DNA of 64,000 nucleotides. Source: Myxococcota bacterium (GTDB lineage: Bacteria > Myxococcota_A > UBA9160 > UBA4427). Shown here one piece after another: positions 6,877 to 22,612 of the stretch. The stretch spans positions 595,825-659,824 of the forward strand of contig OZ252299.1 of assembly GCA_965250285.1 (NCBI GenBank), given 5' to 3'. Numbering within the stretch: the first letter of the stretch is position 1; every line of letters starts with the position of its first letter. The position numbers and the translations under genes are program-made. The notes below the pieces were generated by a model. The model searched no databases. It saw nothing but the letters and a program-made list of their open reading frames with translations, and was not told where the DNA came from.

Positions 6877-8247
6877 ATGGACCGGTCCCGGTCAGACGAG
6901 GTTCTTCTTTCTTCTATTGCTCGTCGCGGCTGCGCGGTCTGCGCGATCGCGGCGGCGCTCGCGCTCGCGGTGGGCTGCGGCGGTGAGGCCGAGAAGCCCG
7001 CGGCGAAGCCGGCCGCCGAGAAGGGCGCCGAGGCGGCGGGGCAGCCCGCGACGCCCGCCCCCTCCGACAAGCCGGTGGTCGAGACGCCCGACGATCTCCC
7101 GTACGCCCTCGTGCTGGGGCTGGCTCAGTTCGAGGCCCGCAAGCCGGGCTCGAAGTCGATGCCCGAGCCCCTGCCCGCGACGATGGAGTTCCTCGTGCGC
7201 AAGAACGGCGAGTGGGTGCACTCGAGCATCGCCGACCCCGACAGCAACGTGATCCACAAGGCGATGGCCTATCCCGTGGACGGCGAGGATCGACTGCTCG
7301 CGGCCGCCGGCTCGAAGGCGACGCTGCGCCTCTGGAACGGCGGCGAGGTCGACACCACGATCTGGGAGAAGGACTTCGGCGGCAAGTTCTCGCGCATGCG
7401 CGACATCGAGATCGCCGACCTGTACGGCGACGGGCAGATGGCGATCGCGATCGCGACGCATGACCAGGGTGTCGTCGCCACCGCACGCCCCGACGGATCG
7501 GGCGGCTTCATCATCGAAGAGCTCGACCAGGAGCCCGACACGTTCGTTCACGAGATCGAGATCGGTGACCTCGATGGCGATGGTGTGCTCGAGATCTACT
7601 CGACGCCGAGCGAGCCGAATCGCCTCGACGGCAGCGAGCAGTCGGGGGTCGTCAAGCGCTACGTGCCGGCCCAGGGCACGCCGGGCGAGGTGGCCGCCGA
7701 TCTCGGTGACCGCCACGCGAAGGAGATCCTCGTCGACGACGTCGATGGTGACGGAGTCGACGAGCTCTACGTGCTCGTCGAGGGCAAGATCGACAAGGAC
7801 ACCAAGAAGCTGAAGGAGGGCGTTCAGATCCTCCGCTTCGAGGGCGACACCCCGGCCGATGGGGGCGTCGTGATCGCCACCATCGACGACCGCCTCGGTC
7901 GGTTCCTGACCGCAGGCGACTTCACCGGCGACGGCAAGAAAGAGATCGTCGCGGCGCTCTTCAGCCAGGGGCTCTGGATGCTGAGCCCGGGCGATGACCC
8001 GAACGCGCCGTGGACGAAGACGCTGATCGACCGCCGCTCGGGTGGCTTCGAGCACGCCGCGATCCTCGCCGACCTCGACGGGGACGGCGTCGACGAGCTC
8101 TACGTCGCGAGCGACAACGACAACGAGGTGCGGCGCTACGTCTGGGTCGACGGCAAGCCGGTGCGCGAGGTGATCTACAAGCGCACGAGCGGCAACAGCG
8201 TCTTCACCTGGAACATCATGCCCATCCCGGTCGAGCTCGTGCCCTGA
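6877..8247 (+). CDS. FG-GAP/VCBS-repeat lipoprotein
   Basis: Lipobox LAVGC after a hydrophobic stretch. Five DxDGDG-type repeats (DLYGDG, DLDGDG, DVDGDG, DFTGDG, DLDGDG). GGAGG upstream of ATG 6877. Confidence 0.8.
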   Translation: MDRSRSDEVLLSSIARRGCAVCAIAAALALAVGCGGEAEKPAAKPAAEKGAEAAGQPATPAPSDKPVVETPDDLPYALVLGLAQFEARKPGSKSMPEPLPATMEFLVRKNGEWVHSSIADPDSNVIHKAMAYPVDGEDRLLAAAGSKATLRLWNGGEVDTTIWEKDFGGKFSRMRDIEIADLYGDGQMAIAIATHDQGVVATARPDGSGGFIIEELDQEPDTFVHEIEIGDLDGDGVLEIYSTPSEPNRLDGSEQSGVVKRYVPAQGTPGEVAADLGDRHAKEILVDDVDGDGVDELYVLVEGKIDKDTKKLKEGVQILRFEGDTPADGGVVIATIDDRLGRFLTAGDFTGDGKKEIVAALFSQGLWMLSPGDDPNAPWTKTLIDRRSGGFEHAAILADLDGDGVDELYVASDNDNEVRRYVWVDGKPVREVIYKRTSGNSVFTWNIMPIPVELVP

Positions 8248-15828: not shown

Positions 15829-15988
15829 GCGGTGCCGCGAGAGGCGCGCGGAGGTCGTCTCGAGGGATGCTCTGCAGAACTCGCTCCACGCATGTTGGAA
15901 CAGCTCTGGGCGGCGACCTCGATGACGCGATGCGACCCAAACCGATGCCACCAGAAGCGAGTGCTGCGCACCAACCGAAGCGTCCCGA

Positions 15989-16106
15989 GGCCGGGGCAGG
16001 CGGGGGTACCGCGCGCAGTTCGCAGGCGCGCTGGGTGCAGCATGCGAGTTTCCCTGATGGGTCGCGCCGAGAATGTCTGAGCACGGTGCCCCCGCCTGCC
16101 CCGGCC
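15989..16106. repeat. 23-bp inverted repeat enclosing 72 nt, between convergent genes
   Basis: GGCCGGGGCAGGCGGGGGTACCG (15989-16011) and CGGTGCCCCCGCCTGCCCCGGCC (16084-16106); one mismatch, a G-U pair on the + strand. Confidence 0.75.
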
Positions 16107-16206
16107 CTGGCACGGCAGACCGGGCAGAGGTTCCCTATCGGGACCGGGGGACGCGCGCGCGGGGTCGTCTCTTTGCGGGGCCGGGTGACGCGCGCGGCGG
16201 TCGTCG

Positions 16207-17694
16207 TCAGCGGCCGCGCAGCAGCGAGTCGGACGACATCAGCTGCCGCCGATCGTCGTCGCTCCAGGGCAGGCTGCGCACGTCGAAGCTCTCGCGGATC
16301 CATCCCCCCTCGCCATCGAGGGCGTTGAAGAACGCGGCGGCCACCGGCTCGAGCACGTGGGCCTGGCTGCCGCCCGGCCACTCGGGGTACTGGGGGATGT
16401 CATCGCTGTAGCGGTGGGCGAAGACACCGATCTCGACGAGGCGGCGTCGGTCGGTGCGTGAGATCCAGTAGAGCGGGTGCTGGGTCTGTTCGTCGAGATA
16501 GATCGTGATCGTGCGGATCGTCTCGTTCTTGCGCTTGAGCGCGCCCTCGATCACGACCGCCGAGCGTACGTCCCAGCGGTCGCTCGCGAGAGAGAGCCCC
16601 GAGTAGCCGTAGAGCCGCTCTTCCTCGATCGGATAGCCCGACTGATTGCTGTTGATCGGCGCGATGACGACGGTGCGGCCGCGCACGCGCCAGACGAACG
16701 CGTTGGGGCGAAGCTCGAGCCCCGTGAAGCCGATGCGCGCGTCCTCGGTCTCGCCGATGTTGATGCCGGCGCCGGGGTTCACCGCGCCGGTGCCCACCGC
16801 GATGCCCCCGCCTCCGGACTGGCCCGACCACGTGAACCTCGGCGTATAGAAGCCGTCGACCCAGTTCGTTGCGGCCCGGCGCACCTTCCGCATCGACGGC
16901 ACGTAGACGAAGATGTCGTCGGGCTCTTCCCAGCGCCGCGCGCTCTTCTCGACGCGGTACTGGCGCCAGGCGAGGCCGCGGGCGGCGAAGGGGTGGCTGA
17001 ACGATCCCGCGCCCACCCAGAGCCGATCCTTCGCCTCGGGTACGGCATAGCCCTGCTCCCACAGATCGGCGCGCTCCTTCAGCTTGAGCAGGCTGAACTC
17101 GCCGCGATAGGTCTGGGTGCGGCCGAGGCCGCTCGCGTGGCTGCGAATGCGCATGCGACCGCGATGGCCCGCCCCGCGGTAGCGCTTCTCGAAGTTCCAG
17201 GCCCAGCGCAGGCCCGCGGTGCTGTCGTCGTCGGCGAACGTGTCGGGGGGGAAGGGCTGGCCCGCCGTGTAGTTCTCGAGGTTGCCGTGCTTGTCGAGCT
17301 TCGGCTGCCCCTTGAACTGCTCGGTCGCCGAGCGGTAGGCCTTCGGGATGATGAAGCGGCGGTGGCACGGGCCGATCTCCATCTGCATGCCTTCGAAGAA
17401 GAAGACCTCGCGGAACTTCCACAGCTCGGAGGGAAGCAGGGTGCGCAGCGCGAGCAGTGAATCCTTGTCGATCGTCATGCCGGGCTCGATGACGACCGGG
17501 GCGGCGTCCTCTTGCGTCTGCCCGTCTTCGCTCGTCGCCTGAAGCGTGGGGCAGTCGCCCTCGTCGGGCGTCGCCGACGCGGCCTGCGCCGCGAGCAGGG
17601 CCCACGCTGCGGCGAGGGCGGCACGCCAGAACGAAGAGCGGCGCGCGCATCGCCGGCGCGGCTGCGCAGCGAGTTGGGGGCGGGTCGTCGGCAC
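16207..17694 (-). CDS. DUF1329-family (LolA-like) periplasmic protein
   Basis: Signal peptide ending AQAASA; YRSATEQ...GNLENYTAGQPFP...AGLRWAWNF; VYVPSMRKVRR. GTG start at 17694 after GAGGAG. Confidence 0.78.
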   Translation of the reverse strand: MPTTRPQLAAQPRRRCARRSSFWRAALAAAWALLAAQAASATPDEGDCPTLQATSEDGQTQEDAAPVVIEPGMTIDKDSLLALRTLLPSELWKFREVFFFEGMQMEIGPCHRRFIIPKAYRSATEQFKGQPKLDKHGNLENYTAGQPFPPDTFADDDSTAGLRWAWNFEKRYRGAGHRGRMRIRSHASGLGRTQTYRGEFSLLKLKERADLWEQGYAVPEAKDRLWVGAGSFSHPFAARGLAWRQYRVEKSARRWEEPDDIFVYVPSMRKVRRAATNWVDGFYTPRFTWSGQSGGGGIAVGTGAVNPGAGINIGETEDARIGFTGLELRPNAFVWRVRGRTVVIAPINSNQSGYPIEEERLYGYSGLSLASDRWDVRSAVVIEGALKRKNETIRTITIYLDEQTQHPLYWISRTDRRRLVEIGVFAHRYSDDIPQYPEWPGGSQAHVLEPVAAAFFNALDGEGGWIRESFDVRSLPWSDDDRRQLMSSDSLLRGR

Positions 17695-17907
17695 GGGCTC
17701 CTCCCGGGGTGCTTCGGCGCGCCTCGGCGCTCGGCGGACGAGCGAGTCTACCGGTCGCGGCGCGCCCGCGCGTGGGTGGCGGGGCAACCCTGCGGGCGTG
17801 ACGCGAGGGCGGACGGGGGACGGGTCGAGGTTGCCCGCATGACGCGAGGGCGTGCCGGGTGGGTCGGGCTACCCTGCCGGGGCCTTCGAAGCGCCGGAGC
17901 CCAATCC

Positions 17908-19613: not shown

Positions 19614-19733
19614 CGTCGACCGCGGTGCCACCCGACGACGCGCAGGCTTCGACTTTCGTACCCGCTGTGCGTGACACGACGTTCGCACATCGGCCCTTGT
19701 GGCGTCGACGGAGAACGTGCCACTCTTTCTGTC

Positions 19734-20513
19734 GTGGACTCACCGCTTCGGTTTCACGTGCGCCCCGAGCTCGATCGTCCCTGGCTGCTTCTCGCCTTCG
19801 AAGGCTGGAACGACGCCGGTGAGGCGGGGACGACGGCGCTTCGGTACGTCTCGGATTCGATGCGCTCGGTGCCGCTGGCCGACGTCGATCCCGACGAGTT
19901 CTACGACTTCACCGTGCGTCGACCGCTCGTCTCGATCGATGACGAAGGCGAGCGCCATGTCGATTGGCCCGCGACCGAGTTTCGCTACGGCACGCTCGTC
20001 GATGGCCGCGAGCTGGTCATCGGCGTCGGGGTCGAGCCGCACTTCCGGTGGCGCCGGTACTGCGACGCCGTGGTCGATCTCGCGCTCGACATGGGAGTTC
20101 AGCAGGTCGCGCTCGTCGGCGGGTACCTCGCCGACGTGGTGTACAGCCAGCCCGTCGCGTTGACCGGTCTGGCGACGGAGCCCGTCGACCTCGAAGCGCT
20201 CGGTGTGTCGACGTCACGCTACGAGGGGCCGATCGGCATCCTCGGCGTGCTCGACGAGCGGCTCCGGCGTGAAGGCCTCTCGGTCACGAGCATCTGGGCC
20301 GGCTTGCCGCACTACATCGACGCCTCTCCCAACCCGCGCGGTGCACTCGCCCTCGTGCACAAGCTCGGCGAGCTGGTCGAGATGGAGGTCGACGACGCGG
20401 CGCTTCGGCTCGAAGCGGCCGAGTTCGAAGAGCGGGTATCGAAGGTCGTGGCTGCGGATGCAGAGCTCGCGGACTACGTGCGGCGGCTGAAGAAGCGGGA
20501 GTTTGCGCAGTAG
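19734..20513 (+). CDS. PAC2 family protein
   Basis: AFEGWNDAGEA, DPDEFYDFTVRRP, GVEPHFRWRRY, IWAGLPHYI and PNPRGALAL. Start uncertain (ORF open to 19671). Confidence 0.85.
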   Translation: MDSPLRFHVRPELDRPWLLLAFEGWNDAGEAGTTALRYVSDSMRSVPLADVDPDEFYDFTVRRPLVSIDDEGERHVDWPATEFRYGTLVDGRELVIGVGVEPHFRWRRYCDAVVDLALDMGVQQVALVGGYLADVVYSQPVALTGLATEPVDLEALGVSTSRYEGPIGILGVLDERLRREGLSVTSIWAGLPHYIDASPNPRGALALVHKLGELVEMEVDDAALRLEAAEFEERVSKVVAADAELADYVRRLKKREFAQ

Positions 20514-20550
20514 CGGTTTCGCGTGCGCGTGGACGTGAGCGGTTGCTCGG

Positions 20551-20684
20551 TTCGCGTTTTCGGGGTGTCGTCCTCAGATTCCGGCGGGCCCGTTCTGCCG
20601 AAACGATTCGCATCTGCTCGTTTGGTGCCGCTTGGGTTGGGCTGGCCCGCCTTCAACTTGCGGGCGCCACCCCGAAAACGCGAA
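20551..20684 (+). repeat. Hairpin element copy 1 (outer stem, internal loop, inner stem, 55-nt variable centre)
   Basis: Perfect 17-bp outer IR 20551-20567/20668-20684. Cores CGTCCTCAGATTCCGGCGGGC and GCCCGCCTTCAACTTGCGGGCGCC are shared with copy 2. Confidence 0.85.
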
Positions 20685-20917
20685 GCGTCGATCGAGTGGC
20701 CGCGTGCTTGCTTGGAGAGGGGGGCTCGTCGCGGCCTGGCGGGCCGCGGCTCGCCGCTCTTGCAACGCCCCCGTCGAGATCGAACCACTCCGCGCGTGCG
20801 AGCTTGGCCAAAGCAACGCGAACCAACGGGGGACGAGGCCTGAAGGCCGAGGCCCCGCTCCCAACCAAAGAGAATGGGGGGCGCACCGCTTCTGGGATCG
20901 AGTCCCACGGCGCGTCT

Positions 20918-21051
20918 CGGGTTTTCGAGGGGGGCGCCCGCAAGTTGGAGGCGGGCGCCAAAGCAGCTCAAGTGTTGCGGCCCAGGCGAAAGCGCCCCAA
21001 TCCCGTACAGCCAGCCCGCCGGAATCTGAGGACGCCCCCCTCGAAAACCCG
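20918..21051 (-). repeat. Hairpin element copy 2 (inverted relative to copy 1)
   Basis: Perfect 19-bp outer IR 20918-20936/21033-21051. Same two cores on the minus strand (21/21 and 23/24 identical); unrelated 57-nt centre. Confidence 0.85.
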
Positions 21052-21074
21052 CCCGGGCACAACCTTCGAACGAG

Positions 21075-21323
21075 CTAAAGCTCGATCGACTCCTCCACCA
21101 GCATCACCGGAATATCATCATCCACCACGTACAGCACCCGCCCGTCTTCTCGCACCAACCCTTCGGCGATCGCCTTCTCGGGCTTGTCACCGCCCCGGTT
21201 GCGCAGGGTGCCGGCCTTGATCTTCTCGTTCAGGTCGGCGACCACGCCAGCGTCGGCGACGCTCAGCGCTTGCTTCGTCTCGGGGCAGACCAGGATCTCG
21301 AGCAGCTCGGCGTTGACGGGCAT
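21075..21323 (-). CDS. Trm112-like (UPF0434) small protein
   Basis: LLEILVCPETKQ...LYVVDDDIPVMLVEES; RBS AGGAG upstream. Confidence 0.85.
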   Translation of the reverse strand: MPVNAELLEILVCPETKQALSVADAGVVADLNEKIKAGTLRNRGGDKPEKAIAEGLVREDGRVLYVVDDDIPVMLVEESIEL

Positions 21324-21379
21324 CGGGGTTCTCCTTGCAGGGCGTGCCCGGGCGGGAGCCCGGGCGTGGGCGCCGGACT

Positions 21380-22612
<1,233 letters not shown>

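Follow-up and report, generated by a model that had tools for sequence, protein, structure and literature searches.

An inverted hairpin pair in a Myxococcota genome is probably an old, decayed MITE of the IS5 family type

Introduction

Correia elements of Neisseria and ERIC sequences of enterobacteria are repeats of 100-150 nt that form long hairpins, lie at gene ends and are co-transcribed. Correia elements duplicate TA and are linked to another type of transposase than the one that concerns us here. The insertion sequence (IS) IS5 duplicates a Py-T-A-Pu target, mostly CTAG (PMC5493358), and an IS5-derived non-autonomous transposon (MITE) with a CTAG duplication has already been described (PMC3189936). 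We analysed a window of 64,000 nt (the whole stretch under study) from a Myxococcota genome, in which two long hairpins face each other between convergent genes. A first-pass annotation had likened them to attC sites, REPINs or guide scaffolds while matching them to none. Our analysis indicates that they belong to a new family of a known kind, and not to a new class of RNA or recombination site.

Results

The pair lies between a PAC2-family gene on the + strand (19671-20513; Pfam PAC2, 5.7e-51) and a convergent 137-aa gene on the - strand (21075-21488; weak Trm112p-like match); looking up a neighbouring protein for annotated context returned no record. Copy 1, on the + strand, is a full repeat of ~150 nt (20540-20687) whose hairpin proper covers 20551-20684. 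Copy 2 occupies 20914-21064 on the - strand together with its leader (20918-21051 in the first-pass annotation), and is recognized by its fold and by 140.7 bits with R1, a covariance model built from 22 copies of the family that we call type A. Both cores reported by the first-pass annotation are where it placed them, core L (CGTCCTCAGATTCCGGCGGGC) being identical in the two copies and core R differing at one base. The fold of copy 1, on the + strand, comprises an outer stem (20551-20567 with 20668-20684), a CGTCC/GGGCG helix with a T.G wobble (20569-20573 with 20662-20666), an internal loop (20574-20582 and 20652-20661), an inner stem (20583-20589 with 20645-20651) and an apex (20590-20644). 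Across the pair, the outer stem measures 17-19 bp, the helix with its U.G 5 bp, the internal loop 9x10 nt, the inner stem 7 bp and the apex 55-57 nt. The free energies of the copies are -83 and -85.6 kcal/mol (z = -6.3 and -4.9), and no shuffle is as stable.

The cores and hairpins were as first described, although the repeat had been drawn too short, as each hairpin has a conserved leader (GGTTGCTCGG) in front of it and, within the supposed spacer, a smaller hairpin behind it. On the left of the unit, the terminal region and leader (CGGTTTCGCG...GGTTGCTCGG; 20514-20550, + strand) correspond to a stretch that family alignments show to be kept 5' of every family hairpin. What had been taken for a spacer is the inner part of the unit (20688-20913), which BLAST and alignment relate to the homologous inner parts of other pairs, each ~250 nt long and bearing a small second hairpin. 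In the right half this small hairpin lies at 20830-20857 on the - strand (GGGGCCTCGGCCTTCAGGCCTCGTCCCC; alignment of pairs and an exact genome match). Its outer pairs covary among copies in the alignment of pairs, and CTTCA(A/G) is common to its loop and to the 3' loop of the big hairpin. A by-eye match to the conserved motif suggests a degenerate counterpart in the left half (20752-20778, + strand; CTCTTGCAACGCCCCCGTCG). A tRNA scan of the window's spacer, prompted by T-loop-like words, found none.

The unit measures 567 bp, and its limits coincide exactly with the TAG stop codons of the PAC2-family gene (20511-20513) and of the convergent gene (21075-21077, CTA on the + strand), with TA at each boundary. 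Across its length, TA dinucleotides occur at the two boundaries and at one internal position (21006) only, where five are expected. The flanking tetranucleotides are GTAG on the left and CTAA on the right, with TA alone in common. The two halves are inverted repeats, 76-93% complementary, and by eye their likeness reaches the TAG (TAGCGGTTTCGCG vs TAGCTCGTTCGAAG, 10/14). The earlier statement that target-site duplications are lacking overlooked these TAG...CTA boundaries, which hold nearly the only TA dinucleotides of the 567 bp; its remark that no transposase lies near the pair was correct.

Outer stems of different sequence that are nonetheless complementary had been reported for the two copies, and the same holds across the family, far above shuffles. 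Paired cells make up 94.9% of the family alignment vs 81% in shuffles, with 0/500 shuffles reaching the real value, and slid registers pair 39-51% of cells. Two-sided changes occur in 21/29 pairs of the type-A alignment, which supports the claim that compensatory changes preserve the fold. In the alignment, a 17-bp outer stem is followed by an invariant small helix with the U.G wobble; the internal loop is conserved, and the apex evolves fast. The T.G wobble sits on the + strand of copy 1 and the - strand of copy 2, as had been noted, and is kept in 19/22 family members and, in a wider count, in 62/67. The claim of a conserved asymmetric core is borne out. The two strands are not equivalent, since R1 scores copy 1 at 134 bits on the + strand vs 41.7 bits on the - strand. 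Two claims about the centres fell away: far from being unrelated, they are partly alignable across the family (CTGGCTTTACGGG..TTTCGC) as its fastest-evolving part, and the 'free cargo loop' is merely this fast-evolving apex. The stems are nearly all Watson-Crick, with 9 G.U vs 20 A.C cells once the fixed wobble is excluded; with so few G.U pairs, they are unlike evolving RNA helices and lack RNA-like tolerance of G.U.

Searches for known RNA signals were negative. A scan against Rfam 15 at permissive E-values gave at best 21.6 bits (threshold 142) with a plant microRNA model, a chance match, in keeping with the proposal of a new repeat family absent from Rfam. Positions 20300-21300 contain no terminator-like site and no U-tract, and the 3' flank reads CGAAGCG. 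The G+C-rich hairpin does not qualify as an intrinsic terminator, since no U-tract comes after it. A promoter-like site was not found inside the unit.

We compared this genome with the sister genome, the only other of the genus (record CAYYSY01), and with 23 others of the same family. Core L occurs 20 times in this genome and never in a reversed-pattern control. The first-pass annotation had allowed for a case of two copies only; instead, nhmmer finds 25 type-A copies here, and R1 finds 41 in the sister species and 0 in the remaining 23. A search for the exact core in 185,579 species, each represented by one genome, hit this genus only. The type-A alignment has a conserved leader (GGGTGCTCGGG), and this motif as a free-standing target shows no enrichment over control. 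Looking for divergent copies by a spacer motif and a loose regular expression yielded noise only.

Type-A copies follow ordinary genes, encoding PAC2, PAP2, DUF481, molybdopterin oxidoreductase, SIS, enoyl-CoA hydratase and MtnA-like proteins, and no function common to the upstream genes was found that would suggest cassettes. Of 23 type-A singles, 18 are sense-oriented and lie 0-50 nt past a stop codon (p = 0.011), which is not what random insertion would give. GTAG frequently stands directly before the copies. Six inverted pairs (+ then -) occur here and at least 10 in the sister species. Replication orientation was dropped as a mechanistic clue, because the bias of type A (11/13 singles co-oriented with replication) is absent in the second family described below, type B (14/28).

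Type-A copies are unevenly spread along the chromosome: 14/25 lie at 5.23-5.33 Mb, within 100 kb of syntenic housekeeping genes, in a cluster ~0.4 Mb from the predicted origin (GC skew places ori near 4.87 Mb and ter near 1.67 Mb). We found no cause for this clustering. The segment C1:5271169-5276096 is inverted relative to contig C215 of the sister genome. Type-A copies mark the breakpoints: in the sister genome one is occupied by a pair and the other by a lone copy, and this genome has a single at 5276135. Type-A repeats may mediate rearrangements. Separately, C1:5.464-5.487 Mb holds many internal repeats of 450-640 bp at 86-98% identity within ~23 kb, presumably a giant repetitive gene.

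Comparison of the two species points to turnover. When 22 sister-genome sites were mapped here, about ten were shared and several were filled in one species only; some are occupied by a pair in one genome but by a lone copy in its counterpart. At the orthologue of the window locus, the sister genome also has a pair. Copies at orthologous sites are 44-67% identical while the flanking genes are 75-90% identical, and paralogues within a genome reach 93%. Because paralogues are closer than copies at orthologous sites, the pattern indicates turnover at the DNA level and not locus-by-locus conservation. At empty type-A sites, divergence between the two species in their intergenic DNA prevents exact junctions from being read. 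Type-A copies hold no significant transposase remnant (best E = 0.13), and we found no autonomous element with matching ends; what links type A to IS5 is a homologous hairpin and a common layout with type B.

R1 also detects divergent relatives, one each in two other families of the order (genomes G035 and G039) and one in the window itself (15989-16115). A second model, R2, built from these three, finds at least 37 type-B copies in this genome that are about 90-95% alike, 20 in the sister genome and 19 in G035. Type A and type B are cross-detected by both models, and the type-B fold resembles that of type A, with an outer stem, a CGUGC/GCGCG helix with U.G, an internal loop (UCAGACAUUCUC / CUGCGAACUGC) and an inner stem. 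At full length, type B measures ~280-390 nt and reads CTAG/GGAACCTCTGCA...hairpin...TGCAGAGCATCC/CTAG. Its right end can be written TGCAGAG..TCC/CTAG, and a terminal inverted repeat, CTAGGGAACCTCTGCA, is present at both ends. Two orthologous sites in the sister genome are empty, each with a single CTAG, and the type-B tail encodes residues 1-33 of an IS5-family transposase (E down to 7e-13). Type B is therefore proven to be a MITE with IS5-type ends, a CTAG duplication and a transposase remnant. Because its left end and first codons are joined to the hairpin and the right end, it is an internal-deletion derivative.

The type-B MITE of the window is complete; it spans 15861-16137 on the - strand and reads ATAG/GGAACCTCTGCC..hairpin (15980-16125)..TGCAGAGCATCC/CTCG (R1 35 bits, R2 105.7 bits; inverted-repeat pairing). 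It lies ~70 nt past the TGA stop of the gene at 16207-17787, and its CTCG flank is mutated. Elsewhere, R2 detects single MITEs in which 2-4 hairpin units are arrayed head to tail, repeating every ~135 nt (C1:5764123-5764669, 5069493-5069773, 1539246-1539525, 1096150-1096430 and 7153-7427), for which slippage and unequal exchange are possibilities. At C1:2300753-2300807, a 55-bp unit consists of just two inverted IS5-type ends (TAGGGAACCTCTGGC) and may be a minimal MITE.

Intact relatives of these elements occur in other genomes. In G018, from another genus of the family, the type-B ends recur as perfect inverted repeats separated by 1.15 kb; they enclose a 323-aa gene, and each has CTAG on its outer side. 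Its product matches the NCBIfam IS5-family transposase model NF033581 at 327 bits and is at least 50% identical to annotated IS5-family transposases. A related genome, G111, has a 1,199-bp element with these ends in six identical copies; in each, R2 places the hairpin 9 nt past the transposase stop, just inside the right end and on the strand antisense to the transposase. The hairpin is thus a native part of intact IS5-family elements in G111, and transcripts coming in from the right flank of the element read its U.G-bearing strand. We know of no such hairpin in IS5 itself. The asymmetric core and its U.G are common to these intact copies and to subfamilies with differing stems and ends; the hairpin module is confined to one order and patchy within it.

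This genome retains fragments of the transposase. The sole sizeable remnant (residues 235-323, the C-terminal 89, at 64% identity) lies at C1:6863-7144, directly beside the hairpins at 7153-7427. Self-comparison of the genome found no other multi-copy insertion sequences. Neither this genome nor its sister has a match to IS4/IS5 (PF01609), hence no intact IS5 transposase, or to RAYT/IS200 Y1 (PF01797), for which control genomes match; IS630 DDE_3 (PF13358) is absent from both and from G035. Without an intact IS5, IS630 or Y1 transposase, recent mobility would need a lost or external source, or else the likeness of copies reflects gene conversion.

Several known element types were considered and set aside. 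REP/REPIN with RAYT was rejected on the PF01797 result, which also answers the suggestion of a co-occurring HUH or RAYT gene. An IS630/Tc1-type MITE with TA duplication was rejected on the absence of PF13358 and on the match of the type-B ends to an IS5-family element. As for integron attC sites, GTTTTCG...CGAAAAC has the opposite order and the wrong purine pattern compared with RYYYAAC...GTTRRRY, and attC cassette arrays do not fit neighbours that are instead housekeeping genes 5-19 kb apart.

Finally, both families favour TAG stop codons. CTAG is 11-fold under-represented in this 69% G+C genome (1,582 observed vs 18,111 expected), and stop usage, from crude gene calls over the whole genome, is TAG 31%, TGA 67% and TAA 2%. 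Stops before type-A copies are TAG in 20/35 cases vs 31% genome-wide (p = 0.001), and the distant relatives in G035 and G039 are also preceded by TAG. In type B, an element end supplies a gene's in-frame TAG stop at the left at ~13-17 loci, at the right at ~5 and at both ends at 3. The stop-bearing reading frames at the left end are long and high in GC3, and ends not used as stops are often mutated. The orientation of type B at stop codons, 16 vs 8, is a trend only (p = 0.15).

Discussion

We interpret the window pair, with a probability of roughly 0.78, as the old and decayed remains of an IS5-type non-autonomous transposon (MITE). It would represent a single 567-bp unit whose inverted ends are long, or else two head-to-head copies. 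Each half would correspond to the right-end region of an IS5-family insertion sequence, with terminal sequence, leader and a hairpin of ~120-150 nt that, in intact elements, separates the stop codon of the transposase from the right inverted repeat. The pair is read as an old right-end MITE because the unit runs from TAG to CTA, TA is scarce within it, the stops before type-A copies are enriched for TAG and the sister locus also carries a pair. We infer that type A arose as type B did, from a related insertion sequence with different ends. Such elements insert at Py-T-A-Pu, mostly CTAG, and duplicate the target. CTAG is scarce here, and TAG stop codons make up a large share of the harmless sites. 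Since the element starts with G, insertion into C-TA-G rebuilds TAG, which would explain why copies lie on or just past stops and where two genes converge. The setting of the window pair between two convergent genes would likewise follow from insertion at TAG stops.

The asymmetric core and T.G are kept across subfamilies, which points to a function beyond passive decay. The hairpin perhaps serves the element, either as a barrier or 3'-end former for incoming neighbour transcripts or as a site bound during transposition. Judged from sequence, the role in incoming transcription is plausible; binding of a folded DNA strand by the transposase would be unusual for a DDE enzyme and is less likely. 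Only tentatively do we entertain a stronger version, in which the asymmetric core is a working module that lets the IS5 lineage sit harmlessly on stop codons, for example as a U-tract-independent transcription barrier or as a site where the RNA 3' ends of incoming transcripts are formed or processed. Host genes that end in MITEs would then depend on this module.

Other explanations weigh the same features differently. The sense orientation of 18/23 type-A singles within 50 nt of a stop, the like placement of the distant relatives in G035 and G039, and the conservation of wobble and internal loop on one strand, which in intact elements is the strand read by transcripts from outside, would all suit a hairpin that is mainly an RNA element of 3' untranslated regions, selected at each locus as a non-canonical terminator, exonuclease shield or processing site. 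We consider this unlikely: the stems are Watson-Crick outside the fixed wobble (9 G.U vs 20 A.C), paralogues resemble each other more than copies at a common site in the two species do, sites have been both gained and lost, type B occurs in both orientations at stops (16 vs 8, p = 0.15), and the searches above found no U-tract, terminator-like site or matching Rfam family. An RNA function of this sort could in any case be compatible with a MITE origin, as an exaptation.

Recognition of a folded single DNA strand, via its internal loop, by a recombinase or transposase of the REP/REPIN-RAYT, IS200/IS605 or attC kind strikes us as very improbable. A long imperfect hairpin with a conserved unpaired core and fixed T.G is what such a substrate might look like, GTAG often precedes type-A copies, their inverted pairs and the tandem arrays recall BIME/REPIN clusters, and 11/13 type-A singles are co-oriented with replication. 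Against this, both genomes of the genus lack a Y1 HUH transposase, the attC R''/R' consensus is not in the sequence, the neighbours are ordinary housekeeping genes and not cassettes, and type B is without replication bias (14/28). The sister family is a classical IS5-derived MITE with DDE-type ends, a CTAG duplication and an IS5 transposase remnant, and the hairpin is native to intact IS5-family elements, which removes the case for an attC-, REPIN- or guide-scaffold-like novelty. The suggestion that the inverted hairpins form a switch that flips the 233-bp middle segment is scarcely credible, even though two ~150-nt inverted repeats are present and spacers of other pairs match the window spacer in either direction. 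Given the symmetry of the unit, the direction of a spacer tells only which way round the entire unit sits; contigs assembled from three runs are collinear and show neither an inverted form nor an alternative joint, there is no promoter-like site inside and no recombinase gene nearby.

Together, these results remove a tempting false lead, an apparently new attC-like or guide-RNA-like element, and document an IS5-derived MITE family found in one order only, in an uncultured high-G+C lineage. They offer a clean case in which CTAG preference and base composition would steer mobile DNA onto TAG stop codons that the element itself rebuilds. A practical gain for annotation is that labels can immediately be given to about 60 intergenic hairpins of this genome. 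The conserved core inside an insertion sequence also raises a modest question, namely how insertion sequences insulate themselves from host transcription.

The elements share features with several described systems. Like Correia and ERIC sequences, they are long-hairpin repeats at gene ends; unlike Correia elements, they are accompanied by no IS630-type transposase, and they show no sequence or Rfam relationship to either Correia or ERIC sequences. Like REP, BIME and REPIN sequences, they are intergenic palindromes placed past stop codons, occur as inverted pairs around a conserved linker and resemble one another within a genome. They differ in having units 4-6 times as long, in the lack of a RAYT gene and in the DDE-type ends of the sister family. 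The intact relatives resemble Escherichia coli IS5 and the IS5 subgroup (PMC5493358) in their IS5-family transposase (NF033581), their length of ~1.15-1.2 kb and the CTAG on both sides; they differ from IS5 in that the G111 copies carry a long hairpin between transposase stop and right end, and this genome differs from such intact elements in having transposase fragments only. The closest match is with IS5-family MITEs such as MITEPsy1 of Pseudomonas syringae (PMC3189936), which is likewise short, non-coding, multi-copy and IS5-derived, with terminal inverted repeats that start GGAA and a CTAG or YTAA target that is duplicated. Compared with MITEPsy1, the elements described here are 3-5 times longer (about 280-570 nt vs 100 nt), keep a conserved 120-150-nt hairpin from the 3' end of the parent insertion sequence, form inverted pairs and tandem hairpin arrays, and are placed almost always on TAG stop codons.
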